The notes under the pieces were generated by a model that searched no databases, was not told where the DNA came from, and saw nothing but the letters and a program-made list of their open reading frames with translations. A stretch of 64,000 bases of DNA, from the IMG/VR virus record IMGVR_UViG_3300027746_000020, positions 7,704 to 71,703 of that record, one strand, 5' to 3'. The translations under genes were made by a program, and so were the position numbers. Position 1 is the first letter of the stretch; each line of letters starts with the position of its first letter. Source of the stretch: a virus. Positions 7,367 through 47,898 of this stretch are shown here, piece by piece.

Positions 7367-7791
7367 GCTGCGAAACTTGCGCGGAGTGCTCCTAAAGTAC
7401 CATCAAAGGCAAAATTGAAGGTGTCTCCGTTGGTGAGATTTTGAGGGTCAATGTAATCCCACCAGCAGATGGTCTTGTTACCTGCGGTAGAGTTGTACAA
7501 CACCGGATAGCGAAAAGTATTGACAGTGCCAGTCGGGTTAAAGGCGTAGTTAGTGAAGGTAGCTTTGTAAATACCTGAGGTCTGGCTAGAGGAAGTTACA
7601 GTGACTGTAAAGCCTCCGAGAGTATAGCCACCGCCAGCGGCTATCTGGGTGATGCCGGATAAGTCGGTAATCGTTGCCGTAGGTGCGGTGTTAGTCAGTG
7701 CGATCTTAAGAACGTCGGAACTGATGTTATGAACTTTGTTATGCAGATCGGCGACGTACTGATTGAAGAAATACTGCGGGGCAGTGGCCAT
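7363..7791 (-). CDS. virion structural protein
   Basis: D.LKIALTN..P ... GYTLGG ... FRY.VLYNST ... WDY ... L.NGDTF conserved phage structural motif. Confidence 0.65.
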   Translation of the reverse strand: MATAPQYFFNQYVADLHNKVHNISSDVLKIALTNTAPTATITDLSGITQIAAGGGYTLGGFTVTVTSSSQTSGIYKATFTNYAFNPTGTVNTFRYPVLYNSTAGNKTICWWDYIDPQNLTNGDTFNFAFDGTLGALRASFAA

Positions 7792-25364: not shown

Positions 25365-26282
25365 TCAGGCTTTCTCCATGACCATCACCGAACGGGGGTA
25401 GTAGATAGCCACACCACCGTGACGAGCGTGGGCCGGAACGGTGTATTCCAGGCCCTGCAGTTGAGGCGCGAAGAACTCCAGGGGTTGCGGGAGGTGCATC
25501 TCCAGCTTGTCCGGGTTGCGGTTGTAGCAGATGATCCGGTCCTTGGACAGGAAACCACCGGAGTTGGCAGCGGTGAGTTCGTTGATGGGTTCGATGTCCT
25601 TGATCACTTCATTGGTGTCAAGGAAGAACTGCATCACGGTAGTGTCGGAAACAGTTCCGAGCTTTGTGGTGCTGATCTTGCGGAAGACGTTGTAGGGCAC
25701 CAACAGGGTGTCCGGCTGCTCCTTCATGTTGCTGTTGTTCACGATCCGAGTGACCGGCTCGTTCAGCAGCTCCAGTTGCTCATCTGCAGTAATAGCGGCG
25801 GTGTCGAACCACTTGTCAGGAACGATCTTGTCGAGCTGGTCGGAGTTAAAGAAGCCGCGAAGACCGGCTGCGGAATCACCGAAATAGGCGAGACGCTGCA
25901 TCGTCTCTTCATAGACACGACGGACGGCATTGGCCCGACGCTGTTCAAGATTGGTATTGGGGACTTCCGCAGCCGCCCGGAGTTCCTGCATCGTGTAGCC
26001 GAAGGACGAACCGTAGGATTCCACTTTGTGGGTGACCTCCTTGCGGAAGACATCGGCGCGGGGCAGATCCTTCGCCTTGTCGGCGATCCGCCGCATGGAA
26101 CCCTGTTGGTCGTAGATGCGGTATGTGTAGCTATCCTTGCCACGGGACACTTCCCCGTTGATGGGGAGGATCATAGAGTATCTGATGTCCGCGTATTGGA
26201 CTTCAAATGCCTTGGGTAGGATGTGCTCAAGTTCCCTCGCGAGGAAGAAACCGATGTTGTCGAGGCGGATGTCGTTAGGCAT
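25365..26282 (-). CDS. major capsid protein (DUF2184-like, HK97 fold)
   Basis: FLARELEHI....FEV.Y, FGYTMQELRAA, AYFGD...L.G..N, GGVAIYYP; start at MPNDIRLD. Confidence 0.9.
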   Translation of the reverse strand: MPNDIRLDNIGFFLARELEHILPKAFEVQYADIRYSMILPINGEVSRGKDSYTYRIYDQQGSMRRIADKAKDLPRADVFRKEVTHKVESYGSSFGYTMQELRAAAEVPNTNLEQRRANAVRRVYEETMQRLAYFGDSAAGLRGFFNSDQLDKIVPDKWFDTAAITADEQLELLNEPVTRIVNNSNMKEQPDTLLVPYNVFRKISTTKLGTVSDTTVMQFFLDTNEVIKDIEPINELTAANSGGFLSKDRIICYNRNPDKLEMHLPQPLEFFAPQLQGLEYTVPAHARHGGVAIYYPRSVMVMEKA

Positions 26283-26368: not shown

Positions 26369-26998
26369 TCAGACGTCAGCGGTGAACGTGGCGGCAGCCA
26401 TCTCGATCTCCAGGAGAGCGAGGCCAGCAGCCGAGGTCTTGGTCAACCAACGGGCGCCGTTGGTGATCTGGGTCGTCCGGGTGCCCGAGGCGGTCTTGCA
26501 GAACCGGCCCAGGAAGGAGCCAGCGGTCGTGCCGGAGTAGTCGGTATCCCAGAAGCGGACAGCGTCGGTGAGGCCCACGGCCTCGGTGACGAACACCCAG
26601 ATCTGGCCCCGGCGGAGGACATTGACAGCCTTCCGGTTGGGATAACCGGTACGACCGTCCGAGTAGAGGTTGGTGCCGGGGATACCACTGGAGGTCGACA
26701 GGTAGCTGGCGTTTCCAGAAGTGACACCCTCGAATGTGAAGGAGTCGATCAGGATGCCCATGTTCCCGGTGGTGCCGGTTGCCAGGGTGACAGCGTTGTC
26801 GTCCCGACCAGTGGTTGTGTCAACCTGGACGAGAGCCCCAAAGGGCAGAGCCGCGCCGGTCTGATTGATCCCGGAGAAGGGGTCGTACGAATTCATGTTG
26901 CCCAGCATGCCTTCGTGGGCGGCCACGGAGGTGAAGGGATAGCTGGACTGCACCCCGATAGGGGTGGTGACCGTGGTCGGGGTGAAAGCTACAGCCAT
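26369..26998 (-). CDS. capsid decoration/cement protein
   Basis: LPFGALV and VNVLRRGQIWV motifs; between protease and capsid. Confidence 0.75.
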   Translation of the reverse strand: MAVAFTPTTVTTPIGVQSSYPFTSVAAHEGMLGNMNSYDPFSGINQTGAALPFGALVQVDTTTGRDDNAVTLATGTTGNMGILIDSFTFEGVTSGNASYLSTSSGIPGTNLYSDGRTGYPNRKAVNVLRRGQIWVFVTEAVGLTDAVRFWDTDYSGTTAGSFLGRFCKTASGTRTTQITNGARWLTKTSAAGLALLEIEMAAATFTADV

Positions 26999-27050: not shown

Positions 27051-28385
27051 TCAGCGCTTGCGAGAAGCGGTGAGGGGTTTCTGCCAGTCCTGGGTGATCT
27101 TGCTGGCGTAGCCATCCGATGCGACAGCAGCGTCCTTGCGTTGGACGCCCCGCAGGGCGGTGCGGAGGCGACCAGTGGAATCGCCTGCGGCGTCAGAACG
27201 GGATTTCTGCGAAGACGCGGGCTCGGGGGCAGGCTCCTCTTCGTCGTCGGAGTCGAGGGTGGCGAGGGCGCCTTCTACGCGGCCCCGCATCAGCTCGATG
27301 GACATGTCATCGTCGGGAGCTTCGCCGAAGATGTTCTCGTAGGCGGAGAGGTAAAGCTCGTCATCTTCGATGCCGTCAAAGACGAAGTCGTCTTCAAAGG
27401 CGGGGGCAAGGCGGCGGAGGGTGTCCAGTCGAGCGGAAACCAGTGCGTCGATTCGCTCAGCGGGGATCTGGGCGAGGAGGGCTTCGATGTTGTCTTCGTC
27501 GAGCTTAATTTCCCCGGCTTCACCACCTTCGTCGAGAACGGCTTGGAGGCCATCGGCGCGACCCTCGGCGGCTTCCTTCTCGTCCTGAAGCTCGCTGAAA
27601 TCAGCTTTGATGGTGTTCAGTTCTTCAGCCAGCTCGGTATTGGTCGAGCGAAGATCACTGATCTCCTTCGCACTGTCACGCACGAAAGCTTGAATGAGGG
27701 GAGCGACGTCGGAGGCGACATCAACGTCGACCCCATCGAGCTTGATGCGAACAGTGGACATGGCGGCGATTGCGGGGGTTACGGACTCGGGGGGATCGAG
27801 AAGTTCCTGGTCAAAAGATACTGCGGAGGTGGAGTCGAGCCTGTCGAGCAGTAGACGGACTTCCGGGCCAGCCCTCCCCTTGGGGACGATGGCGATGTGA
27901 TTGACGCGAATGTTGCGTTGGACACCGTCGTAGGCTTCGCCGGAGGGCGTTTTGCCAGGGGTGGGGTCGTAATCGACCCGGTATCCGGCGGAGACCTCCA
28001 CTGCGTGATCAGCGGAGTCTTTGCGTTGGATGTTGTCGATGGCCTTTTTGTCTGTGACAAGAAGGGCGACTTCAACGAAGCCGTCGCTGAAGCGGACTTG
28101 GGAGCCAGCGTGGCCTACCTGGAACATCTTGGTGTTCTCCGCGTCAAGGAGGACGGGCGGATGTTTCCAGGTGACCGGCTTCATGCCGAAGGAGCCGAGA
28201 GTCTCGGGTTTGGAGACTTCGGAATCCGGGCGGTATTCGGTGGCGATGGAGCCATCAGCGCGGCGGTATCGCTGGGTTCCGGTACGAGCGGCGCGGCACC
28301 AGACCTTGAGGTAACCCGTTTCCGGGTCGATTTCGCTGCCCGTGATGGGGACGGAGGCGAAGTCGTAGCGGGTGGCTTCGGTCAT
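27051..28385 (-). CDS. prohead protease-scaffold (DUF2213-like)
   Basis: GYL.....ARTG.Q.Y, PVT..HP, EVSAGY, YD.VQRNIRVNHIAIV.KGRAG plus acidic coiled-coil tail. Confidence 0.9.
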   Translation of the reverse strand: MTEATRYDFASVPITGSEIDPETGYLKVWCRAARTGTQRYRRADGSIATEYRPDSEVSKPETLGSFGMKPVTWKHPPVLLDAENTKMFQVGHAGSQVRFSDGFVEVALLVTDKKAIDNIQRKDSADHAVEVSAGYRVDYDPTPGKTPSGEAYDGVQRNIRVNHIAIVPKGRAGPEVRLLLDRLDSTSAVSFDQELLDPPESVTPAIAAMSTVRIKLDGVDVDVASDVAPLIQAFVRDSAKEISDLRSTNTELAEELNTIKADFSELQDEKEAAEGRADGLQAVLDEGGEAGEIKLDEDNIEALLAQIPAERIDALVSARLDTLRRLAPAFEDDFVFDGIEDDELYLSAYENIFGEAPDDDMSIELMRGRVEGALATLDSDDEEEPAPEPASSQKSRSDAAGDSTGRLRTALRGVQRKDAAVASDGYASKITQDWQKPLTASRKR

Positions 28386-28418: not shown

Positions 28419-29558
28419 TTAATCTTCCCAGTCACCTGGAACATAACTAGGGATAGGGATGTGTCGAACTCTGGCTTGCGGGCGTGCTCGACGTTTAGCT
28501 AGAGTTCGCAATGGTTGATTACTGTCCTTGGCAAGCGCAATCGCGAGACTGTTGTAGTAGCCAGTGACTAGCTTGTCTGCAATATCAGTATCGTAGTCTT
28601 TTAATAGTATTTGCAGGTTAAATTGCTTGTCCTTCCATCGGCTTAAAAACACATCCGCTTCATAACCGTGCATACCTACACGGTATGGGACCTGGAACAT
28701 TTCTTGAATGAAGTAGCCTGGATTTTCTGTGTTGAATTCAGCCGAGCCAAAGTCAATAAGCTTAATGTCTTTAGTCTTAGGGTTGAACAATATGTTTTTA
28801 AGGTGTGCGTCATTATGCGCAATGCCTGCAGTATGTAGTGTTCTGTACATACCCAACATTTTCTGCTTAACCTCGTACGGTGCGGTTGGGTGTAGATTAA
28901 AGAATGAGCTGGCGTTCGCCCATTTCTGTTTGTATATCTGCGTATAACCGTCCAAATGCTCTGTCACCAGTGTTGCGTCTGTCACTTTGTGCAATCTTGG
29001 ACTCGGGACACCATTTCTATTGGCATACAGCAACATTTCGCCCTCGGGGAGGAGGCTATCCCTACCCGCTCTAAAGGCGGCCGTAGGTTCGTCACCGTCA
29101 TTGTGTAAATACTTGATTCCGTACTTTTTCGATGGGTGGACAACATAATGTCCATACGCCCCTTCACCTACTAGACAGCGAGGGAAGGGTTCAAAAGCAT
29201 CTTCTCTAATCCAGTTGTCGATCTTAGACGCGGCACAAGCAATGCGCTTGTCGCGTTTGTTCTCCTCAAAGACATCCCACTTCTTCCCACCATGCCGCGC
29301 CTCGCGCTCGATCCGGTCCCAGTCCTCGCCGGGGGAGGAGAAGCCCTTCCAGTTGGGATCGCGGCGGCCCCAGCGGCGACGGGCGGCGAAGCCAAGGGTG
29401 GCTACGCCTGCGATCGCTCCTGCCCCGAGGGCGACTTTGCCGATCAGGCTCGGGGTGATGCGGGAAGTTGTCTTCTTAGAGCACTTCTTGTTGTCGGCGA
29501 TGCCGGATTTCCCGCACTTCTTGTCGAGGCGAACCCTCGCTGCGGTCAGCAGTTCCAT
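28419..29558 (-). CDS. Ser/Thr-type protein kinase with N-terminal RLD/Cys module
   Basis: VGEGAYG Gly-loop, YGIKY, HNDAHLKNILF catalytic loop, KLIDFG. Confidence 0.88.
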   Translation of the reverse strand: MELLTAARVRLDKKCGKSGIADNKKCSKKTTSRITPSLIGKVALGAGAIAGVATLGFAARRRWGRRDPNWKGFSSPGEDWDRIEREARHGGKKWDVFEENKRDKRIACAASKIDNWIREDAFEPFPRCLVGEGAYGHYVVHPSKKYGIKYLHNDGDEPTAAFRAGRDSLLPEGEMLLYANRNGVPSPRLHKVTDATLVTEHLDGYTQIYKQKWANASSFFNLHPTAPYEVKQKMLGMYRTLHTAGIAHNDAHLKNILFNPKTKDIKLIDFGSAEFNTENPGYFIQEMFQVPYRVGMHGYEADVFLSRWKDKQFNLQILLKDYDTDIADKLVTGYYNSLAIALAKDSNQPLRTLAKRRARPQARVRHIPIPSYVPGDWED

Positions 29559-29857
29559 TTTCTCAACGACTTGTTAATCCGCGAATCGGGATCATTCGCG
29601 GTCTTCGCGCTGGTGAGCTTCCGCTTCATCCCCGACATGCGGGAGCAGAAGGCTTTCCTGCGCTTCGCTTTCTTGGAGTCTGGGCTGAGCTTGGAGGGGT
29701 CGGTTGTCACCGCCAGGGAGAGCTTGGAGCCTGGATTCTCCCGGCGGTAAGCGGCGATGCCCTTGGCGTTCAGGCCGCCCTCGGGGTTCTTGCCTTCCTT
29801 GCGTTGCCAGGCGGGAGACTTGTTGTCGAGGCGGATGGTGAGGGGTGTGAGTTTCAT
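29546..29857 (-). CDS. small basic protein (DUF6321-like) with IRLD leader
   Basis: SPAWQRKEGKNPEGGLNAKG...RRKAFCSRM...SRINKSLRKWNC, a conserved phage family recognised from memory. Confidence 0.75.
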   Translation of the reverse strand: MKLTPLTIRLDNKSPAWQRKEGKNPEGGLNAKGIAAYRRENPGSKLSLAVTTDPSKLSPDSKKAKRRKAFCSRMSGMKRKLTSAKTANDPDSRINKSLRKWNC

Positions 29858-31254
29858 CTGCCTCTCGCCTGCCTATGGTGCCGCACCTTGAACACAGCTC
29901 GCTTCGCGGCAGCATAAACACTGCCGACATCCTGCCCATAGCCTTTACCGAGTGTCGTGACATTCCGCTTGAAGTTCTTCGCGGACATCGCCGCGTTAGC
30001 TGCGTTCTTCGCAGCCTGCGCTCGATTGCCCATGGCGATGTTGCCCAAGGCGAAGCCTCCGTGCATCACGGGCTCACCCAGGCCAGCGGCGGCGGCCCGC
30101 ATGTTGGCTCGCTTGTGGAACAGGGCGGTGCCGACTAGGCCAGCCCCAGCGATGACAGCTCCTGCCTTGAGGGCTTTCACTGGTTTGTTCCACGATGCGC
30201 GGCATCGGTGGTTCTTGGGGATGCAGGCATTACCACAGGGCTTGGAGTTGGGGCCGCATTTGAGCTTCTTGTCGTTGCCAACGAAAGCGTCTTTGCGTTT
30301 GCCTTTGAGGAGAACACCAGCAACTAGGGCCCCACTAACCGCAGCCGCCCCAGCCACAACTTTAGTGCGTAGCTTACGTTTTGCCGTAATCCTGCCTACT
30401 TCTTCCAATTCCGCATACTCCGGCTGCTTACGCGCAAACTTCACCCAGTCATCCATATCTTCTTCGTTGGTTATTCGTTTGCCGTAACGCTTTTGCATAT
30501 CTGCTACTAACTGCTTTCTGTGAATATCAAGTTGAGCATTCGTAGCTTTGTGTAGATCCGACGTCACTCCAGTCGGCTGCCCTTTACCTTTATGACACTT
30601 CTCACCAGGAGATACGCCACTACCGCCGCACTTAACATCCAAACGTGAAGTGGCGTCCTTGCGCTTCACGCCTCTAGCGGGCTTCCTGTATCCAGGCTCC
30701 TGCTTACGCCTTGCAGCTTCCATGGTTAGCTGCGCTGTACGCAACAGCGACCGTCGCTTCCCTCCTTCGCTTGATTCCCGCATCAATCCTGCAGTCAGCT
30801 TGAGCGGAGGTTTGCGGTAACCCGGTTCTTGCTTGCGCCTGGCAGCTTCCATGGCCAACATCGCCTTGCGGCGAAGGGATCTCCTCTTTATGTCCCTGAC
30901 CATCCCATTTGACCCTTCAGACGTAAACTTCATCGAAGGCTTGACTGAAGTTGCTTTGTGGACAACTTCAGTCACACCCTTTTGAGCAGCTCGTCGCACC
31001 GCCTCGGGGGCGTTGAGGATCTGCTTGCGGGAGGAGGTCATGGTCAGGCCAGCCCCGAGAGCGGTCGCACCGGCTACGGCAGCACCGATGGCGAGCTTCC
31101 GTCCGCGAGAGGAGCCGGGTTTCGGGCTCGGGGGAGCGGGGGCTTGGGCGCTGTTGTTGGGGGTGCCTACGCCTTTGTGACACTTCTTGCCTTGGGCAAT
31201 GTGCCCGGAACCGCACTTGAGGTCGAGGCGGAGTTGACCTGCAGTGAGGGTCAT
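29854..31254 (-). CDS. basic modular protein with three C-G-x3-[IV]-x5-C modules
   Basis: CGSGHIAQGKKC, CGGSGVSPGEKC, CGNACIPKNHRC, each followed by a Gly/Ala hydrophobic helix. Confidence 0.8.
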   Translation of the reverse strand: MTLTAGQLRLDLKCGSGHIAQGKKCHKGVGTPNNSAQAPAPPSPKPGSSRGRKLAIGAAVAGATALGAGLTMTSSRKQILNAPEAVRRAAQKGVTEVVHKATSVKPSMKFTSEGSNGMVRDIKRRSLRRKAMLAMEAARRKQEPGYRKPPLKLTAGLMRESSEGGKRRSLLRTAQLTMEAARRKQEPGYRKPARGVKRKDATSRLDVKCGGSGVSPGEKCHKGKGQPTGVTSDLHKATNAQLDIHRKQLVADMQKRYGKRITNEEDMDDWVKFARKQPEYAELEEVGRITAKRKLRTKVVAGAAAVSGALVAGVLLKGKRKDAFVGNDKKLKCGPNSKPCGNACIPKNHRCRASWNKPVKALKAGAVIAGAGLVGTALFHKRANMRAAAAGLGEPVMHGGFALGNIAMGNRAQAAKNAANAAMSAKNFKRNVTTLGKGYGQDVGSVYAAAKRAVFKVRHHRQARGR

Positions 31255-31257
31255 TGG

Positions 31258-32256
31258 TTATTTACCCCCGGCCCGTTTGCGCCATGCGGCTGCCCGAGCA
31301 TTTGTGAACTCCCTTTCGGCAGCGGTGGTCTTCCGATCAGGTGCAGGCCCAGAAGAACCCCTGAGTAGACCAGCCGGCACAGCTCTTGCAGTGGTGTTGA
31401 CGCTCCCCTTGCGCTGACTCCAGCGCCGGGACGGCCCTTCGGGGTTACCGGCGGCGCGGGCTGCTGCGGAGTATTCCTCGTTGGACATATTGCGATAACG
31501 GTTGCTCCTTTTGGTCTGAGCCCGCTTAAATCCAGTTACTGCTCCTTGCCTCATCCTCTCGAGATCCCCACCCAACACAGCACGACCCCCTGAATACGCA
31601 AGATTGACTACGGCACGGTTAAGCCCGCTATTTTGGAGTTTCGTATTGCCTGTAGCTTTACCTTCAGCGATGTTACCTACGCCCTGAAGAGCACCGAAGC
31701 CGCTAGCGGCATAGCCGTATGCTTTAGCTTTATGCCGATTACCTTTAATCGCATGCTCAAAGGACTTAATAGCGGACGCAGCGCTCGCAATTCGCGAACC
31801 GATTCCCAGAGCCCTGCCCCCATATTCTTGCAATTTACTGCCAGTACCCCCTTTAGGGGTTCTTCTCGCCATTCCACCAGCACCAGACCTGCACTTCTTC
31901 CCACGACCGATGTACCCATTACCGCACTTCGTACCCTGCCCTTTGCCAGCAGTCGCCATGGCATCGAGCCTTGCGCGGATGTAGCTCTTGCTGCGGTCCT
32001 GAATTCCCAGATCGCATGCGTCGAGGTACTCCATGGGAGTGAGCGCAGCGTCCATCTTCCCCCCTTTGTCACAGCCACAGGAGCCTTTCTTCTTCCCCTT
32101 CTTCGCGCATTTCGCGCAGGGCTTCTTCCCATGCGGAGCATCGTCGTACTCGGGGCCCTCGCCCTTCTCCATCATCGGAGACTCGGATTTCTCTTCGGCA
32201 GCGCTGCCCTCGGCGGCCTTCCTACCCTTCTTCGTAAACGATGCAGGAATTGGCAT
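31258..32256 (-). CDS. basic Cys-rich protein with one C-G-x3-I-x5-C module
   Basis: ARLD...CGNGYIGRGKKC; additional CAKC...CGC cluster. Confidence 0.78.
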   Translation of the reverse strand: MPIPASFTKKGRKAAEGSAAEEKSESPMMEKGEGPEYDDAPHGKKPCAKCAKKGKKKGSCGCDKGGKMDAALTPMEYLDACDLGIQDRSKSYIRARLDAMATAGKGQGTKCGNGYIGRGKKCRSGAGGMARRTPKGGTGSKLQEYGGRALGIGSRIASAASAIKSFEHAIKGNRHKAKAYGYAASGFGALQGVGNIAEGKATGNTKLQNSGLNRAVVNLAYSGGRAVLGGDLERMRQGAVTGFKRAQTKRSNRYRNMSNEEYSAAARAAGNPEGPSRRWSQRKGSVNTTARAVPAGLLRGSSGPAPDRKTTAAEREFTNARAAAWRKRAGGK

Positions 32257-32281
32257 GGCCTAGAGGGAGGACTTCGTCTCC

Positions 32282-32863
32282 TCAGGCTACCGCTGGGGTT
32301 GAGGGAAGGATCCTGTGGACCCATGCACTCTTTAGCTTGTAGTCAGGCTGACTGTTGTACTTCCGTGCCGAATCCCAACGGCTGACACCAGCTACGCAAG
32401 CGGCGTAAATGATGTTGACTGAGTAGAACCCGTCGTAGAAATTCACTCCAGGGTTATTGTAACGCCAGAGAGCACCGTCGAACTCCGACCAGGGATCTTT
32501 GACGTCGAAGGAATAGGTGCCATTGGTCGGCTCCTTTACCCCATCGAGAGCGATCACATGGCCGGAACCGGTGAACCAGCCATGGGTGATCAGGAATTCC
32601 CCGGCCTTCAGGTAGCCGACAATGTCATTGAGCGAGGCGGCGGGGTTGTAAATGTACCGCTTACCGACAAAGCCTTTGAGGACCACACCCATGTTAGCGG
32701 GACTTCCTGCTTCACCAGGGAGCCGGTCCAGCTTGCGGCGAATACCGATGACGTCCGCATCGCCAACTGCCATTGCGATACACGCCGATTGGCATGTGTA
32801 GGGGTCAGGCTGGGAGAGATTAAGCGCGTGAACTGCAGTCTTCCATTCTTTTGCGATGGGCAT
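32282..32863 (-). CDS. papain-like (C39-like) cysteine peptidase, candidate endolysin
   Basis: Q....TCQSACIAM, SGHVIALDG, V.DPW catalytic pattern; start MPIAKE at 32863; adjacent to holin-like gene. Confidence 0.75.
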   Translation of the reverse strand: MPIAKEWKTAVHALNLSQPDPYTCQSACIAMAVGDADVIGIRRKLDRLPGEAGSPANMGVVLKGFVGKRYIYNPAASLNDIVGYLKAGEFLITHGWFTGSGHVIALDGVKEPTNGTYSFDVKDPWSEFDGALWRYNNPGVNFYDGFYSVNIIYAACVAGVSRWDSARKYNSQPDYKLKSAWVHRILPSTPAVA

Positions 32864-32865
32864 GA

Positions 32866-33093
32866 TCAGCGGCTCCGCAGTAACATGGTGATAACAGACA
32901 GAAGCTGACCGATTTGTTGGTAGATCGCGTTCGCCTTGATTGCGGGAATCGCTGCAAGACCTTCGGAATAGAAGGTGGTGAACGCAAAAAACAGGACGAG
33001 CCAGTTGATCGTGTCGGTAGTCGCGGCTGACGCTGCAAGCGGAATGCAGACAGCCACCAAGGCTGGGAGGGATACAAGGGTGGCGAGCTTCAT
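32866..33093 (-). CDS. holin-like membrane protein
   Basis: 75 aa, hydrophobic segments, SEGLAAIPAIKANAIYQ motif, basic C-terminus. Confidence 0.65.
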   Translation of the reverse strand: MKLATLVSLPALVAVCIPLAASAATTDTINWLVLFFAFTTFYSEGLAAIPAIKANAIYQQIGQLLSVITMLLRSR

Positions 33094-33190
33094 GAGGACG
33101 CAAGCGATGCGCTCAGGCTATCTGCGGGAGGTAGCCTCCCAGTTACGAAATAGGGTGCAGGCTCGGGGGCAAATACAGCGGGCTTGTGGT

Positions 33191-35023
33191 CTAGGCCAGG
33201 ACGCCAGCACCTCCAGTAAGCCCAATACGGGCGATCAAGCTACCAATAGCTTTGGCGTTATACGCTGCAGTGTGCTTATCTGCAAAAGCTTCAGTTCGTC
33301 CGGCAGAGGATGCAACTGACTGCTTGCCGCACTTGTGTACTTGCGGAATATAGCTTTCGCCACAGGGCTTTCCTTTCCCTGTGTCATAACGACTCAAAGT
33401 GCCTAAGTATGCTGCCATGTAGATATTAGACGGACGATCTACCTCATCTCCCCTCCGAGACGCTCTCGGGGATGGCGCGGTATCACCGATACTAAGCCTG
33501 GTGTAACCCTGCTGCCTAAGGTAATCGCGAGCGACATTAACACCGCTCATCGGATAACCTGCCATGTCTTCGGCAGCTGCCTGTATCACCCGTGCGGACG
33601 GAGTAGATACGCGGTTACCCATGACACTGGTGTCATAGCTGTACCGCTGGATAAACTCTGCATGACTAGGGCCTGCGATAGGGACATCACGCAATGCACC
33701 GGGCAGGCGCGTATGTAATACTTGCGCGTGAACAATGTTGACATGTTCGATTAGGTTACGCTGCTCAGGGCGAACCCGGTCACCGGGAAATACTGCGGCG
33801 TAATCCGCTAGCGCACGGAAATGGGAGTTGAACTGAGTTCGCGTATCGCTAAACACCCGAGCCGCGTCATTAGTGAAGTCGTGACCATCGGGTTTGTTGA
33901 TCAGTTGGCGAAGCTGTTCTCTTACCTGATTCTGAAACTGAACCGGGGCTCCGGCAAAGTCGCGGCGTACGGTTTGCTCAATATATTGAGAACGAGCCTC
34001 ATTCCGCCTACGCGGGCCGTCTCTGCCTGTAGCGTTGATATTGAATCCTTGGTTCATCGCATCCCGTTTCAATGCTTGGGATTGATTCGCCAAGGTTCCT
34101 GCCATGTGTCTTCTAAGAAACGCGACGTCATTAGCTAGACTACCTGTGCGTGTCCCTGCAAGGCCGTGTTGTTGGGAGAGGAAGCTATACGTAGCATCAT
34201 CGACAAACACGCTGCGACCGTCGACAGTAGTGTTCAAAACCGCTTCACGACTATTACGTTTCCAGTCGTCGAAGGACTGTCCTTCTCTTGCGGCTGCTTC
34301 CGCTGTTCTGTTAAGAGAGGCTAGAACATTGTTCCGCCCATTATGTCCGAGACCGCCGTTGCGGACGGTCTCGGGGACATCTGCCATCCGCTGGGTGAGA
34401 GCATCGGGCCCCCTGTTTTCCAGGTTGGAGACTCGATAGGCGACATGCATCCCTGCGCTTTGGGCTTGGGTTCGTTGCTGAGCACGAATGCCCCCGAGAC
34501 CGGGGATCCGATCCATGACTGCGGAGACACCGGCACGGACGGAATCGTCGAGCTGGCGGCCGGGACCACTGGCATAAGCAGGCCAGCCTCGCTTCATCAC
34601 GTTGTGGAGGGCAAAGCCTCCGGTGACCAGAGCGAGCCCGATGGTGAGGTTGCGGGTGTTCTTGTCGAGTGATTCGCGGACTTTCTTTTTCTTCTCAACA
34701 TCGCCGGGGATAGCTTTGACAATTCCGCGCTTGATGGCGCGGGTGCCGCCTTCCACTTCGGAAACATTGCCGGTAACTACGCCCTTGACAACACGCTTTG
34801 TGCCGCGCTGGATGTTGGCAGCACCGCTTAGTGGGTCGAAGTTTGAAGCGCGTTGGTGACTGTCATGACCTTCACCTTTAATCCGGCAGTCCCAATCTGC
34901 CGGAATACAGCGTCTACCGCACTGCTTGTTAGGTGGTTTACATTTAATTGTGCCTGAAGTCTTCCGCCTCGCATCAAGCCGCGTCTGGATAGCAAGAAAA
35001 GTCGCAGCGCGGGTATTGGTCAC
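33191..35023 (-). CDS. large basic protein with two C-G-x3-I-x5-C modules, in the position usually held by a minor head protein
   Basis: TRLD...CGRRCIPADWDC at N-terminus; SRYD...CGESYIPQVHKC near C-terminus. Confidence 0.8.
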   Translation of the reverse strand: MTNTRAATFLAIQTRLDARRKTSGTIKCKPPNKQCGRRCIPADWDCRIKGEGHDSHQRASNFDPLSGAANIQRGTKRVVKGVVTGNVSEVEGGTRAIKRGIVKAIPGDVEKKKKVRESLDKNTRNLTIGLALVTGGFALHNVMKRGWPAYASGPGRQLDDSVRAGVSAVMDRIPGLGGIRAQQRTQAQSAGMHVAYRVSNLENRGPDALTQRMADVPETVRNGGLGHNGRNNVLASLNRTAEAAAREGQSFDDWKRNSREAVLNTTVDGRSVFVDDATYSFLSQQHGLAGTRTGSLANDVAFLRRHMAGTLANQSQALKRDAMNQGFNINATGRDGPRRRNEARSQYIEQTVRRDFAGAPVQFQNQVREQLRQLINKPDGHDFTNDAARVFSDTRTQFNSHFRALADYAAVFPGDRVRPEQRNLIEHVNIVHAQVLHTRLPGALRDVPIAGPSHAEFIQRYSYDTSVMGNRVSTPSARVIQAAAEDMAGYPMSGVNVARDYLRQQGYTRLSIGDTAPSPRASRRGDEVDRPSNIYMAAYLGTLSRYDTGKGKPCGESYIPQVHKCGKQSVASSAGRTEAFADKHTAAYNAKAIGSLIARIGLTGGAGVLA

Positions 35024-36978
35024 TTCTCGTCCTCGGGGGCTGGGCTCATCGTGAATACAGTCTGCTCGGGCAGGAAAGCAGTCAGCCCCTTCCGCGCCGC
35101 CCGGAGCGAAGCGAAGCCGGTGACCAGCGGACCAGGGACGATCACCTCGTCGAGCTTGATCGTGGTGCGGAAGGCGGCGTACCGGCGCGAGCGGCTGGGC
35201 CCGATCAGCACCAGGCGGGAGAGATCGGGGCTGCCATGGGCGTCCACGCGAGACTCATCGCTCACCCTGCGGCCCATGCTCATGCCGTCGATGTGCTTGA
35301 GGACGTTGATGTTGAGGTCGAGGGCCTCGTAGCTGTCGGTCTTGGGTGCGGCCTTGGGTTTGGGCTTCGGCTTGGCGGCGGGCTCCTCCTGTGGTTGAGA
35401 CGCTTGCGACTCAGGTTGAGACCCGCCAGGGGCTTCGCCGGATTGATCCACAGGAGGCAGGATCCCGCCTTGATCCGCAGGAGCTGCGTTCGGATCGGGC
35501 TCGGGGGGAATCGGCTCACCATCCGGCCCCAAGCCTTGCGCCTGGAACGACTGCGCCTGCAGTTGATTCATATTGTTCTCAAACTCCGTGTCCTGCTGCA
35601 TCTCCAACTGTGCTGATACATTTTTATCCAGCACGGTTTCGATGCTGTAATTGGTCGAGCCGAAGCGGTTGTTGCGGATCTCGACGGGCTTAAGTACCCC
35701 GATGGTGACGTAAATCTGGTCGACAGAAGCTTGTGATGCGCGAAGCGCGGTCTTCTCCGTGTCCGTTTCGGTGAACACCGAGGGGAAGTGAACCTCCCAG
35801 GAATCCGGCACCTTGCCCCGCATTGGGCTCTCTTTCGCCAACATCAGCATGGTGAAGAGGTCCGAGACGGGCTCCTGGCAGTAGACGGTTTGCCAATCTT
35901 CGACAAGGGACGCCCAGACACGTTCTTCAAACCGACCTTCTTTCCCGAGGCCACCGGGGCTGGTGCCCATCAGGATCGAGGCGGGCCAGCCCGTCGTGGC
36001 CTGCATGTATTCCGCAAACGGGGCGGTGGCCTGAGCCATGTTGCCGAGGGCTCTTTCGGAAAAGCCGATTTCCTCGTCTTTATCGAGGATCATCCCGCCG
36101 TAGGTGGAGCGGGCCAGGTTGTTGACCTCCATCCGCTTCATGATCGCAGCGGAGTTCCCGGCTTTGACCATGTTCATCAAGCCGGGGATCTTGTGCCAGA
36201 AGACGGAGGCGTCCGTGATGCTTGATTCCAGGCCACGCACTGCGGATTCGTAGGTCTTCCAGGCTTCCCAAACCGCCTGGAGGGGGGCTTGGCCCCAGCC
36301 GCTCTGCTGTTGGCGCTGCCGCCAGGGGAGATAAAGCCCGTCGAACCGGATCACACGGGTGTGGTGGATCGTGATGTTCGTCGTGTTGTTGATCTGTTCA
36401 GGATCGAGCTTCTGATTGGTCGTGATGCGGTACGCATTTGGCTTGGACTGATCCATGACGGACATGTCCATCGGGAAGATTTCGTGCCGGGAGAGGGGGC
36501 AGAGCCCGCGAATGCCACGAATGTGGGCGACGTTGACAGGTTCGGACGGGTCTTCGACACCGTCGTCGATGAGCATGACGATGGCAGCCCCGCCGTAGAG
36601 ACGCTGGAGGCGGATCGCTTCTGCATAGGCGCGGTAGAAGGAGACTTGCTTGAGGTACGCCTCAAAGTCTTTGATCTGATCGACTTCGTCGGAAGACTTA
36701 TCTCCTCCCAATGTGATCGTCGGTCTGTGCTTCAGCACAGCATCCGCGATTGCGTCGACGTAGCGCCGAGGGAGTCCTACTGAGTAGAGGGCTTCAAGCT
36801 CCGGGTGGGAGAGCATGAAGGAGAAGCTGGGGCGGGTGTGTTGGGTCTTATCTCGACCGTAAACACCCATGCCGGTTAAGCCATTGACAAGGGCACCGTC
36901 AATACGCGCAAACTCTTCATCGCTGCGGTATTCAGCCGAGGAGGAGTTATCGGTAGTTTCGGAAGATGCTGTTGTCAC
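35020..36978 (-). CDS. portal protein (DUF1073-like)
   Basis: DG.LVN.LTGMG...DK, RLYGGA.I, IHHTRVIRF.G, P.SIL.G.SPGGL; follows terminase. Confidence 0.9.
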   Translation of the reverse strand: MTTASSETTDNSSSAEYRSDEEFARIDGALVNGLTGMGVYGRDKTQHTRPSFSFMLSHPELEALYSVGLPRRYVDAIADAVLKHRPTITLGGDKSSDEVDQIKDFEAYLKQVSFYRAYAEAIRLQRLYGGAAIVMLIDDGVEDPSEPVNVAHIRGIRGLCPLSRHEIFPMDMSVMDQSKPNAYRITTNQKLDPEQINNTTNITIHHTRVIRFDGLYLPWRQRQQQSGWGQAPLQAVWEAWKTYESAVRGLESSITDASVFWHKIPGLMNMVKAGNSAAIMKRMEVNNLARSTYGGMILDKDEEIGFSERALGNMAQATAPFAEYMQATTGWPASILMGTSPGGLGKEGRFEERVWASLVEDWQTVYCQEPVSDLFTMLMLAKESPMRGKVPDSWEVHFPSVFTETDTEKTALRASQASVDQIYVTIGVLKPVEIRNNRFGSTNYSIETVLDKNVSAQLEMQQDTEFENNMNQLQAQSFQAQGLGPDGEPIPPEPDPNAAPADQGGILPPVDQSGEAPGGSQPESQASQPQEEPAAKPKPKPKAAPKTDSYEALDLNINVLKHIDGMSMGRRVSDESRVDAHGSPDLSRLVLIGPSRSRRYAAFRTTIKLDEVIVPGPLVTGFASLRAARKGLTAFLPEQTVFTMSPAPEDEK

Positions 36979-37025
36979 GCCGGTTCCTGCGTGTGCTCAG
37001 TGTAGCTTCGCTCTCGGGGGAGTTA

Positions 37026-37168
37026 CGACTTTCCAGGGTTCGTCCCGACTTTCCAGGGTTCGTTCCGATAAACCAGGGGTCGATTTCCCGACTTTCCAGG
37101 GTTCGTTCCGATAAACCAGGGTTCGTCCCGACATTCCAGGGTTCGTCCCTACATTCCAGGGTTTTGGG
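37026..37168. repeat. seven tandem ~20-bp repeats, consensus CGAC(T/A)TTCCAGGGTTCGT(C/T)C
   Basis: Copies start at 37026, 37046, 37066 (23 bp), 37089, 37109, 37129, 37149; invariant CCAGGG core. Confidence 0.95.
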
Positions 37169-37187
37169 AGAATCGAGGGTGAAGCTT

Positions 37188-38684
37188 TCAAGCTGCGCGG
37201 AGGAAGCCAATGAGATCGACAGAACCGGGGGCCGCCATGGCTGCCAGTGCCAGGGCTATGACCGTGTCATCGTGGGCGGATCCTCCAGCGTTGCGCTTCC
37301 CCTTGTCGTCGCGGCGGAACGCTCGATGCTCGTCCGCGATGATCCCGTCAGGGAAGATCAGGTCATTGTCCTCCATCATGTACAGAGTTCTGTCTGTGAT
37401 GGCGTTCTTTATTGGGTCGGACATGTAGACAAGTTCGATCTTGGTGCCTGAGGATTGGAGAGCCAGTGCTTCTGCGATGATTACCCCCATTGAGTTCTTT
37501 TCTACAATTACTTCTGATGGGAGGAAGTTGTCGATTAAGTCTTTGACTTTCTGCAGGCTATAAGGCGAGGAGCGATTGTTCTCGCGGTACATGGCCGCTA
37601 CGCGGTTCGGTTTTGAGGTGATGTCTAGGACTACTGCGGTGAAGTAGTCGTCGCCGCCGCCGTTGGGGTCGACGCCCATGGAGTAGACGCGGTTGGCCAT
37701 CCCACATTCTGAGAAGGCGCCTTTGGCGCAGGTTTTGACCAGGCTGCTGGGGTATATCGCCGATGCTGTCGAGCCAAACTTCAGCTCAAACTCAGCATCC
37801 CACTGGTTCTTAGTGAGCTTCTCTTGCTTGCGGTAGTTCTCCGCCCAATCCGGGTCTGCCCCGTATTGAGGGTGCATGGAGTAATGGAGTGCGACTCGCG
37901 CCCAGCCGTCCTCTCTGCCGACTTCGTCGAGCATGGCCTGGAGACCGACGAAGTCGCGCCTTTCGACGTAGTCGTACCAGTCAGAAGGGAGACCAGTTGT
38001 CCATTTTTCCCCGAACCAGTTCGACTCCATGTCTGGAGTGGAGACGACGATCACCTTCCCGGCCCTGCCGAGCTTCATGAGAGAGGGGTTTGCGCCCTGG
38101 TAGATGTCGGCTACCCCCTCGATGAAGGCCGCTTCGTCGAGGAAGAGGACGGAACAGGCGGGGATACCACGACCACCCCGGCCTGTTGCGGGGAGGAAGT
38201 GGAGAGTTCCTCGGCCCCGCCAGGAGAGGCGTGTGTCGCTGTTGGAAAGCCAGGTGAGGGATTCGTTTTTGAGAGATTCGACCATGAAGCGGACACGCTT
38301 CGCCAGTTCCTGGGAATCTTTCTGGGTTTTTGAGATGATTACGGCTGTGAAGCCGGGTTCGGTTAATGCCCTATTGGCTAGATAGTTACAGATGACCTCG
38401 GATATACCAATCTGCCGGGATTTGAGGACTTGGATCCGCCGTGCTCGGTGAAGGATCTTGACGAAGTCCTTCTGGAATTGATATGGGTTGAACGGCTGAA
38501 CAGCCGCACCCTCATCGTCACCAGTTTGGATCCATGTGAGCGGCGCGAAGTCCTGCCAATTTTCGACTGAGGGGAGCGATGTCACCAGCTTTGCGCTGGC
38601 GTGAAGCATCGCTGCAGCTTCCCTCAGCTCGGTTTCTTTTTCAAGCCGTGCCAGTCGAGTACGAAGTGAAGAGCCGTATTTCAC
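37188..38684 (-). CDS. terL: terminase large subunit
   Basis: LKSRQIGIS Walker A, LFLDEAAF Walker B, VSTP, MGVDP and HDDTVIALAL nuclease motifs. Confidence 0.95.
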   Translation of the reverse strand: MKYGSSLRTRLARLEKETELREAAAMLHASAKLVTSLPSVENWQDFAPLTWIQTGDDEGAAVQPFNPYQFQKDFVKILHRARRIQVLKSRQIGISEVICNYLANRALTEPGFTAVIISKTQKDSQELAKRVRFMVESLKNESLTWLSNSDTRLSWRGRGTLHFLPATGRGGRGIPACSVLFLDEAAFIEGVADIYQGANPSLMKLGRAGKVIVVSTPDMESNWFGEKWTTGLPSDWYDYVERRDFVGLQAMLDEVGREDGWARVALHYSMHPQYGADPDWAENYRKQEKLTKNQWDAEFELKFGSTASAIYPSSLVKTCAKGAFSECGMANRVYSMGVDPNGGGDDYFTAVVLDITSKPNRVAAMYRENNRSSPYSLQKVKDLIDNFLPSEVIVEKNSMGVIIAEALALQSSGTKIELVYMSDPIKNAITDRTLYMMEDNDLIFPDGIIADEHRAFRRDDKGKRNAGGSAHDDTVIALALAAMAAPGSVDLIGFLRAA

Positions 38685-47575: not shown

Positions 47576-47898
47576 CGGGGGAGTGCAGCGGGCTCGGGGG
47601 TAGGGGTTTTTGCCAGGGTCTGGAAATGGCCTGCTCGCCTGTGCATGTCAGCGGTGAGCATGTTCAACTGGAGAGCGGCCTTTTGTAGCCGAAGTTTGTC
47701 CTCTTCGGTTAGAAGTTGACCTTGCTCCATGCGGTATTCACTGTGTAGAAGGTCATTCCTGATGCGGCGGAAATGTTCTGCAGCGTTTTGATAGCGGATC
47801 GCTTCTGCGTAATCCGCACCGTGAGGATGTTGCGAAGCCGGGGTTTGCGGTTCCTCCGATGTTGTGGTTAAATGTTCTTGTCGCTGGTGAGGCTGCAT
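47572..47898 (-). CDS. hypothetical protein
   Basis: Operonic ORF preceded by partial leader motif. Confidence 0.55.
   Translation of the reverse strand: MQPHQRQEHLTTTSEEPQTPASQHPHGADYAEAIRYQNAAEHFRRIRNDLLHSEYRMEQGQLLTEEDKLRLQKAALQLNMLTADMHRRAGHFQTLAKTPTPEPAALPR

Follow-up and report, generated by a model that had tools for sequence, protein, structure and literature searches.

A Recurring R-x-D Leader, Cysteine Hairpin, and Hydrophobic Helix in Genes between Portal and Prohead Protease of an Uncultured Virus: Candidate Head Cargo

Introduction

What is encoded by the genes between the portal and the prohead protease of an uncultured virus, and what is the meaning of a short cysteine motif that recurs among them? 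The question is raised by a window of 64,000 nucleotides (positions 7,704 to 71,703 of IMG/VR record IMGVR_UViG_3300027746_000020), which covers most of a 71.7-kb source record rated complete by CheckV. Six genes lie between the portal and a DUF2213 prohead protease: g610, a C39-like gene, g332, g466, a DUF6321 gene, and a kinase gene. Four of these carry seven copies of the motif C-G-x3-[IV]-x5-C, each preceded by the tripeptide R-x-D, which recurs at conserved places in the capsid, portal, and protease proteins. Judged from sequence, there is a slightly better than even chance that this array encodes head cargo: a leader would address the proteins to the procapsid, the DUF2213 protease would cut them at R-x-D, and the pieces would exit with the DNA.

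Phages are believed to deliver many different enzymes together with their DNA, and capsid addressing is known for very few model phages (the capsid-targeting sequence, or CTS, of T4; the binding of gp7 to the portal in SPP1). Minor head proteins of the MuF/SPP1 gp7 kind usually occupy the slot after the portal, and in MuF polymorphic toxins variable effector domains are delivered from the head.

Results

A six-frame regular-expression scan of the window for C-G-x3-[IV]-x5-C returned nine matches. Seven lie on the minus strand, as do all features given coordinates below unless stated otherwise, inside four open reading frames (ORFs): one in the kinase gene (29481–29516), three in g466 (31180–31215, 30595–30630, and 30202–30237, in order of translation), one in g332 (31891–31926), and two in g610 (34886–34921 and 33329–33364). 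The exact sequences named in an initial annotation, made from the DNA alone, are thereby recovered. The other two matches, on the plus strand (47730–47765 and 47846–47881), have stop codons in or beside them. In 100 mononucleotide shuffles of the window the mean was 0.95 matches and the maximum 4. An R-x-D lies 2–17 residues upstream of all seven copies (RLD five times, RKD and RYD once each), as had been described. The initial annotation had also placed a Gly/Ala hydrophobic helix after every copy, and this stands for part of the set. When the helix is defined by a 17-residue Kyte-Doolittle mean of at least 1.2, it starts within 30 residues of the motif in four of the seven (kinase, first and third copies of g466, C-terminal copy of g610), but 75–80 residues downstream in two (second copy of g466, first of g610), and in g332 the Gly/Ala stretch after the motif is weaker and amphipathic. 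Two features had been missed: the sixth, untagged C39-like gene in the slot, and the fact that two of the seven copies (the first of g610 and the third of g466) are of a four-cysteine type, C-x6-C-x3-C-x6-C.

The initial annotation treated R-x-D, cysteine motif, and helix as one module. The anatomy of the family instead reveals three separable elements: leader, Cys hairpin, and helix. The leader comprises 11 residues, M-x-L-T-P-x-x-φ-R-x-D, and begins 145 proteins of the pooled set. Its φ-R-x-D starts exactly at residue 8 in 25 genes of the 19 complete arrays described below, with at least one such gene per array. It stands without a Cys loop before DUF6321 in the window and before DUF5872 in a relative (L040), and the Cys loop stands alone in a metagenomic protein, P0060. 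Fused genes keep the leader internally, often behind an additional R-x-D; the DUF6321 payload and the four-Cys domain are each seen in two settings, as a gene of its own that starts with the leader and as an internal piece immediately after R-x-D. A hydrophobic helix follows within 30 residues in 159 of 272 motif contexts, and none is found within 80 residues in 38 of them. No lipobox or signal peptide pattern was found in the array proteins. No window protein matched the Pfam model Gly-zipper_YMGG (cut-off 28.9 bits), and one relative stayed below that line at 20.6 bits (E 3.6e-4); the likeness to glycine-zipper membrane helices is one of composition only.

Relatives were sought by back-translating K-C-G-x-G-x-I-x-x-G-x-K-C to a DNA pattern and scanning it against IMG/VR. 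At least 119 stretches matched, and 80 loci were examined among the matches listed; these hold 327 strict motifs. All 80 match head or array proteins of the window and form one clade (about 48% identity in TerL, 47% in the portal, 66% in the capsid protein), with the gene order TerL–portal–array–protease–cement–capsid. In the 19 loci that span portal to protease, the array occupies that slot without exception, in the order portal, g610-like gene (536–1274 amino acids), a gene of about 290 residues, g332-like gene, one to four leader genes, protease. The gene of about 290 residues encodes MuF (PF04233, E 9e-12) and is present in 18 of the 19. Among the 80 loci g610 is found in 51, and g332, the most widely conserved array gene, has a tblastn match in 76.

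Run against 1.84 billion representatives, a profile built from 115 diverse modules matched 651 cluster representatives at E ≤ 0.001, 203 of them at E ≤ 1e-10, and the strict motif is present in 144 of 145 new top matches; the exception, P0099, has 14 stretches without a strict motif and is probably a false positive. The matching proteins reach 3641 residues and seven modules. The 26 longest carry ART-PolyVal (2/26), InPase (2/26), LPD1 (1/26), an ATLF zincin (1/26), NUDIX, DnaJ, DUF676, LRAT, histidine phosphatase, poly(A)-polymerase-type nucleotidyltransferase, kinase, 2H, GNAT, and HD domains; ART-PolyVal, InPase, LPD1, and the ATLF zincin are absent from the six genes of the window. In three giants (P0074, P0049, P0155) a four-Cys module with its helix recurs every 350–500 residues. 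P0060 (2212 amino acids) places six loops of the form P-C-G-x-S-F-I-x5-C-H between InPase, ART-PolyVal, and a poly(A)-polymerase-type/HD unit; its lineages presumably have other proteases. Kinase payloads follow the leader/Cys-loop/helix unit in P0021, in P0026–P0029, and in 19 of the 80 loci, and the DUF6321 payload lies internally behind R-x-D in P0006 and P0007. The suggestion that the unit is reusable is thus borne out: it precedes exchangeable payloads in hundreds of related proteins. Diverse payloads had likewise been expected, together with restriction to head modules of DUF2213/DUF2184 phages. The 19 complete arrays agree with this; the tagged genes of Aphanizomenon phage CL131 lie just before the tape-measure gene, rather than between portal and protease, and Synechococcus myovirus S-CBWM1 carries the cysteine pattern and has no DUF2213. 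In a tblastn search of 50,697 cultured-phage records, whole g610 and g466 gave no match at E ≤ 0.01; the 31-residue four-Cys piece alone matched CL131 (E 0.03) and Planktothrix phage PaV-LD (E 10).

Across the 115 diverse modules the C, G, and C of the motif are invariant and the I nearly so. The two additional cysteines of the four-Cys type come and go together: among the 272 contexts, an upstream Cys and a Cys at +4 are both present in 55 and both missing in 217, and one alone is never found. In a larger set of 627 contexts, Cys is present at both −7 and +4 in 127 and at neither in 474, and Cys at −7 alone does not occur. The remaining 26 have the +4 Cys without one at −7, and the 20 of these that were inspected all have a Cys at −5 to −8. 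His occupies both +4 and +9 in 73 of the 627, and the commonest type has two Cys and no His. In AlphaFold2 (AF2) models, the four-Cys motifs of g610 (predicted local distance difference test score, pLDDT, 62–77) and g466 (pLDDT about 88) each form a hairpin of two strands. Since loss of the other pair leaves the core cysteines in place, the motif is most simply read as a hairpin that one pair staples, with the second pair optional. A metal site, which in zinc knuckles and zinc ribbons takes four Cys/His ligands in a hairpin, is possible in the four-Cys and the Cys-His-His-Cys types; whether a disulfide or a metal holds the hairpin is a matter of speculation, and its role may be that of a staple, a metal site, or a contact with DNA or lipid.

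The distribution of R-x-D points to the head protease. The tripeptide lies no more than 40 residues upstream at 196 of 200 motif sites; among 991 control positions taken from those ORFs, this is true of 122. Nine RLD strings fall in seven adjacent head genes of the window, and one falls in the 37 other ORFs examined. The protease-scaffold protein itself contains 11 R-x-D where 3.4 are expected, a number reached in none of 300 shuffles, and nine of its R-x-D columns are conserved in 15–20 of 20 homologues. One is at the N-terminus (20/20), one at the end of the DUF2213 domain (20/20, with R182 and D184 invariant), and six more are in the scaffold half, which is otherwise variable yet keeps these six places. 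In the capsid protein I-R-L-D occupies residues 5–8 (26259–26270), and [IV]-R-x-D is found there in 11 of 11 clade capsid proteins. The portal sequence A-R-I-D (residues 24–27) aligns with an R-x-D column in 28 of 28 clade portals, ahead of the conserved start; conserved R-x-D columns of the portal fall at positions 25, 211, and 577 of the window protein. No conserved R-x-D was found in cement (16 sequences) or TerL (17 sequences). An N-terminal R-x-D is also present on the capsid proteins of Synechococcus phage S-CBS4, CL131, and PaV-LD, all three of which have a DUF2213 protease. A distribution that takes in capsid, portal, and protease-scaffold and spares cement and TerL, neither of which lies within the procapsid, is what a maturation-protease site would show, and R-x-D is therefore probably the head-protease site. 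A complex prediction for protease residues 1–190 with the module alignment scored 0.02 against a mark of 0.32 and carries no weight either way.

The array is embedded in a compact head module. TerL (37188–38684), assigned by ORF and family search, is followed by the portal (35020–36978; 652 amino acids; PF06381, E 1.1e-53). Then come g610 (33191–35023), the C39-like gene (32282–32863; 193 amino acids; a weak PF13529 match, E 0.007), g332 (31258–32256), g466 (29854–31254), the DUF6321 gene (29546–29857; 103 amino acids), and the kinase gene (28419–29558). The protease gene (27051–28385; PF09979, E 1.9e-41) encodes the DUF2213 domain at residues 23–178 and an acidic, scaffold-like C-terminal half; cement (26369–26998) and a DUF2184-type major capsid protein (25365–26282), both recognized by family search, complete the module. 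Start and stop overlap at 35020–35023, where g610 begins within the end of the portal gene, and at 29854–29857 and 29546–29558. Across the array, one promoter-like site is observed where 4.9 are expected, and 14 terminator-like sites where 13.5 are expected. With several genes overlapping and neither kind of site in excess, the array reads as part of the late head operon. The ORFs g610, g332, and g466 had no match in Pfam, PHROG, or NCBIfam, and each array gene of the window has at most one recognized domain (kinase, DUF6321). In the gap between terL and the portal gene (36966–37210), ORF translations carry recurring short peptide strings.

The first array gene, g610, begins with a leader of about 17 residues ending in T-R-L-D, followed by a four-Cys hairpin, an all-helical body, and a C-terminal R-Y-D with loop and helix. 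Arg15 and Asp17 of the leader R-L-D (residues 15–17; 34973–34981) are invariant in 39 aligned homologues, as are Cys28, Cys35, Cys39, and Cys46 of the hairpin (34886–34942), which AF2 models with strands at residues 33–35 and 38–40. A hydrophobic helix at residues 126–143 (34595–34648; Kyte-Doolittle mean 1.48) lies inside a modeled helix spanning 109–146. At the C-terminal junction, R-Y-D (545–547) precedes the Cys loop (554–565; together 33329–33391), for which AF2 gives strands 551–554 and 557–560 at low pLDDT, and hydropathy marks a terminal Gly/Ala helix at 592–610 (33194–33250). The AF2 model has a mean pLDDT of 77.2 and is helical from about residue 60 to 510; a fold search of PDB and BFVD libraries gave no match at E ≤ 0.001. 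Homologues stand directly after the portal in all 19 complete arrays and reach 1534 residues; the one in locus L048 extends to 1040. Of 39 g610-like proteins, 12 carry LRAT/NlpC-P60 and three carry kinases.

The C39-like gene occupies the place that MuF holds in 18 of the 19 relatives, and replaces it in the subclade of the window. Its product, putatively of cysteine-peptidase fold, is probably a cell-wall enzyme, since fusions to PF00959 lysozyme or PF01832 glucosaminidase occur among 265 homologues. The same fusions led to rejection of the idea that it is a processing peptidase. It resembles gp037 of S-CBWM1 (74.5% nucleotide identity over about 215 bases, 61% amino acid identity), which adjoins two kinase genes. 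Its neighbor g332 has a charged N-terminal region, R-L-D at residues 96–98 (31963–31971), its single Cys loop, and an amphipathic Gly/Ala tail; its ESM Atlas model (pLDDT 0.54) yielded no usable match.

The three-module protein g466 carries its leader at 31222–31254, with the helix of the first module at 31036–31098. The second module has R-K-D...R-L-D at 30637–30663 and a helix at 30298–30372, and the third has R-K-D at 30289–30297, a four-Cys motif at 30202–30258, and a helix at 30112–30183. In the AF2 model the four-Cys hairpin comprises strands 337–340 and 343–346, and the helices that span 353–460 have pLDDT 86–92. Its 29 homologues, all metagenomic, have one to three motif copies each, in shuffled order, with kinase or DUF6321 fusions. 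A wide VIA-align structure search returned at best MrpF (Z 7.6, root-mean-square deviation 5.1, 82 aligned) and otherwise generic helical bundles, all within the noise for helical proteins. Residues 130–190 (about 30685–30867) form a basic helix ending in E-P-G-Y-R-K/R, with AF2 pLDDT up to 87; this piece sits just before junctions, twice in g466 and also in most homologues.

The DUF6321 gene (PF19846, E 7e-19) has a leader (29825–29857) and no Cys loop; a literature search on DUF6321 found no paper. Its 3′ part (29546–29662) has 72.7% DNA identity to a hypothetical gene in 34 records of Synechococcus phage ACG-2014f, a likeness that hints at gene exchange with marine cyanomyoviruses. The kinase gene has a leader ending in V-R-L-D (29523–29558), a Gly/Ala helix at 29379–29453 downstream of its Cys loop, and a kinase domain at about 28710–29045. 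The domain matches Kdo (25.2 bits, cut-off 21.3), falls just short for Pkinase (30.9, cut-off 31.7), and matches Bud32-type models at E 1.8e-8, kinase matches in NCBIfam being weak and the only ones there; H-x-D-x4-N and D-F-G strings are present in the translation. The payload of 28419–29558 is a predicted kinase, an atypical member of the protein-kinase-like superfamily.

Discussion

From the observed anatomy, conservation, and shuffling of the array, and from the distribution of R-x-D, we infer packaging, cleavage at R-x-D, and ejection. The array proteins would be made late and co-assembled into the procapsid. Their leader would act as an address that ends in a protease site, much as the CTS does in T4, and the DUF2213 head protease would trim the cargo at R-x-D. 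When the next cell is infected, the trimmed cargo would exit the capsid together with the DNA. In this branch of polyvalent proteins, the basic 12-residue Cys hairpin would serve as the general tag at junctions, and the helix may either bundle the cargo or hold each payload, once released, in the host membrane. Insertion into the host membrane is a speculative possibility, one that we hold to be doubtful.

The closest functional analogy is to the internal proteins of T4. The array may work like the CTS system without being a member of it. In IPI–III and Alt, a short N-terminal address stands on unrelated cargo, as the leader does here, and the cargo consists of diverse anti-host proteins that are cut free by the prohead protease gp21 (as described in the part of PMC3012670 that was consulted). 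The T4 address ends in a head-protease site that also marks capsid and scaffold; here the correspondence is at the level of the motif. The sites themselves are unrelated, that of T4 gp21 being hydrophobic-x-Glu and the one here φ-R-x-D, and the protease belongs to the DUF2213 family. The array differs further in its added Cys hairpin and hydrophobic helix, and in the presence of the tag at internal polyprotein junctions.

Several observations weigh against this account. No published cleavage specificity for DUF2213 proteases was found in the literature searched, which was available in part. Some conserved R-x-D lie in folded regions (portal 211, capsid 75, protease 42 and 121) and are probably structural, so that not every conserved R-x-D is a site. 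In 127 of the 272 contexts R-x-D stands exactly two residues before the first Cys, where its part might be to build the hairpin structurally rather than to be cut. P0060 has Cys loops but neither R-x-D nor helices, and a kinase of S-CBWM1, a phage lacking DUF2213, bears the loop as well. No payload comes after the C-terminal module of g610, and the C39-like gene has neither leader nor Cys loop although it lies in the slot. Structure prediction of the Cys motif supports a hairpin in the four-Cys forms, but the two 2-Cys modules of g466 fall below pLDDT 50. In the AF2 model the Gly/Ala helix 353–379 of g466 is packed, with high confidence, on two further helices instead of standing free as a membrane span. 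Hydrophobic helices inside a DNA-filled capsid would, moreover, need shielding, for which no explanation is offered here. Because the Cys loop occurs without R-x-D, helix, or DUF2213, the three parts need not share one function. Since P0060 has loops only, the Cys loop is best seen as a general junction element, and R-x-D and the helix as lineage-specific.

The alternative that survives best, though we judge it unlikely, is that the proteins are packaged but left uncut. Leader, R-x-D, and loop would then constitute a folded handle that docks the cargo to portal, scaffold, or DNA; R-x-D would serve as a salt bridge or cap, and the polyproteins would stay intact. The two-residue spacing in 127 of the 272 contexts would fit a handle, and R-x-D precedes 157 of 183 internal look-alikes of post-leader sequences, mostly as the single string R-x-D-L-K-C-G. 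That giants of as many as seven modules are kept as single ORFs also fits an uncut chain. The distance from R-x-D to the loop nevertheless varies from 2 to 25 residues, and R-x-D precedes payloads that have no loop (DUF6321, DUF5872). It is conserved without a Cys loop in the N-termini of capsid and portal and six times in the scaffold half, and AF2 gives no confident joint fold of leader and loop. These points weigh against an uncut handle.

It is improbable that the array proteins never enter the virion and are instead late, membrane-anchored proteins of the producing cell, acting in superinfection exclusion, lysis timing, or envelope remodeling from a variable moron slot. The Gly/Ala helices with their basic flanks do resemble membrane anchors, and one relative gives the weak, subthreshold Gly-zipper_YMGG match. 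The slot also holds an untagged enzyme of cell-wall type, and in S-CBS4 it holds glycosyltransferases and a methyltransferase. Such a role would leave unexplained why R-x-D is common to leader, capsid, portal, and scaffold, why the payloads are those of polyvalent proteins with MuF inside the array, and why synteny holds in 19 of 19 complete loci. Kinases have, in addition, been reported from particles of other cyanophages: the part of PMC10665884 that was consulted describes atypical APH/ChoK/RIO-like kinases in purified S-CBWM1, S-CRM01, S-TIM5, and S-CREM2. Those phages are myoviruses, and no shared tag is mentioned in that part of the report; S-CRM01 has T4-like N-termini and no Cys motif.

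A third possibility, a shade more improbable again, is that the array makes mainly structural ejection (pilot) proteins that build a DNA conduit through the envelope, with enzymes as secondary passengers. T7 gp14–16 and the P22 ejection proteins are the models for such a conduit. The conserved core formed by g610 and g332 (51 and 76 of 80 loci) is without an enzyme domain, and g610 has a helical body of 450 residues with hydrophobic helices. LRAT/NlpC-P60 domains are fused to g610 relatives (12/39), and the cell-wall-type enzyme adjoins g610 in the window. At the thresholds used, known ejection proteins were matched neither in fold nor in sequence, although these tests are weak. The virus has a long tape-measure gene (1867 amino acids), and in long-tailed phages the tape-measure protein usually supplies the conduit. 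A pilot function would also require packaging and so overlaps with the head-cargo explanation. That the motif is an artefact of chance or low complexity can be regarded as refuted: the linkers and helices are compositionally biased, and P0099 is probably a false positive of this kind, but seven copies stand against 0.95 expected, with invariant residues in 115 modules and 327 copies in 80 loci.

The initial annotation knew of no described system with this architecture, and that view has to be revised, since the strategy has precedents in polyvalent and MuF-slot proteins (PMC5512222) and in the logic of the T4 CTS, and since MuF itself is present in the arrays of 18 of 19 relatives. Polyvalent proteins are predicted to be packaged and injected, and to be processed by embedded zincin-like metallopeptidases (Iyer et al. 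2017, PMC5512222, consulted in part). Like the array, they are encoded beside portal or MuF, as in the window and the 19 complete loci. They share a repertoire with the module family (ART-PolyVal, InPase, LPD1, NUDIX, kinases, GNAT, 2H, papain-like peptidases), as well as domain shuffling and the appearance of cassettes as small adjacent ORFs. Polyvalent proteins have 2–15 conflict-type domains per polypeptide, whereas the window genes have at most one; family members recovered with the module profile hold several, P0060 for example combining InPase, ART-PolyVal, PolyA_pol, and HD. The domains of the window are mostly separate genes with their own leader, and the putative processor is the head protease rather than an embedded metallopeptidase. 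The main text of PMC5512222 contains none of the words “cysteine,” “transmembrane,” “linker,” or “ribbon,” and no Cys-loop/helix junction is described there. The three-part tag and the R-x-D rule were not found in Pfam, PHROGs, NCBIfam, or the literature searched, which was available in part. The strategy is therefore known, from polyvalent proteins, MuF-slot effectors, the T4 CTS, and virion kinases, and the three-part tag is most likely undescribed. Tentatively, the Cys hairpin might be a general junction or loading tag of phage polyvalent proteins across lineages. Here, joined in one operon to an R-x-D site and a glycine-zipper helix, it might yield separately released, membrane-targeted effectors.

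Other head-delivered systems resemble the array less closely. The reported absence of MuF holds: a search of the full 71.7-kb record with PF04233 gave nothing at E ≤ 1, and control genomes did match. The payloads here, unlike those of MuF toxins, are not fused to MuF, and the relatives have MuF as a separate gene. The role of MuF is summarized in PMC5512222, in the part consulted. We know of no repeated Cys-loop/helix unit in the inner-body proteins of giant phages. In SPN3US and phiKZ the prohead protease cleaves many of the proteins inside the head at a short consensus, and these are ejected into the host (PMC7411985, PMC10052503, consulted in part); both the protease family and the site differ from those considered here. 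In the literature on E217 cryo-EM, likewise available in part, nothing on cleavage was found.

If the array is indeed cleaved head cargo, a tag recognizable in sequence would make virion cargo predictable from metagenomes, and it marks at least 651 protein clusters. The R-x-D site would be the first cleavage rule for the DUF2213 proteases, a widespread but unstudied family of head proteases. The swapping of kinase, ADP-ribosyltransferase, NUDIX, and pyrophosphatase cassettes would be explained, and leader, hairpin, and helix would offer a portable cassette for packing chosen or foreign proteins into capsids.

The cargo idea is directly testable, since two cultured carriers, CL131 and PaV-LD, exist. 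By portal sequence, the closest cultured relatives of the window virus are cyanophages, S-CBS4 (35% identity) and CL131 (29%). CL131 has eight profile matches (best E 3.4e-9); its gp044, gp045, gp047, and gp048 (1811 amino acids) combine R-x-D with four-Cys modules. In PaV-LD the motif stands behind Y-R-Y-D or F-R-V-D in ORF061, ORF065, ORF078, ORF079, and ORF080, the first two of which lie between portal and protease. The CL131 virion contains 23 proteins that were detected with liquid chromatography–tandem mass spectrometry, itemized in Table S5 of PMC6293099, and ORF044–048 are not named in the main text of that paper, as far as it was available. A virion proteome of PaV-LD has also been published (PMC3255931). 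In prokaryote genome contigs, g610-family matches were confined to two short contigs from metagenome-assembled genomes (L130 and L131; 2.9 and 3.6 kb), labeled Burkholderiaceae and Rubrivivax, and that scan found no prophage in a named isolate.

Three further observations concern cultured phages. The CL131 “portal” gp012 (L002, 8800–12981) is a 1393-residue fusion of portal and further domains, and its C-terminal Cys-x-Cys-type string resembles the end of S-CBS4 gp13. We take such strings to be typical of MuF-like minor head proteins; gp012 would be a portal–MuF polyvalent fusion. The APH-like kinase gene of S-CBWM1 starts with C-x5-C-x3-C-x6-C, in a phage that has neither leader nor helix. 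In S-CRM01, the genes g126–g131 (L134), around a virion kinase and a cytidylyltransferase, encode similar 10-residue N-termini in the style of T4 targeting sequences, which fits a different tag serving a common strategy.

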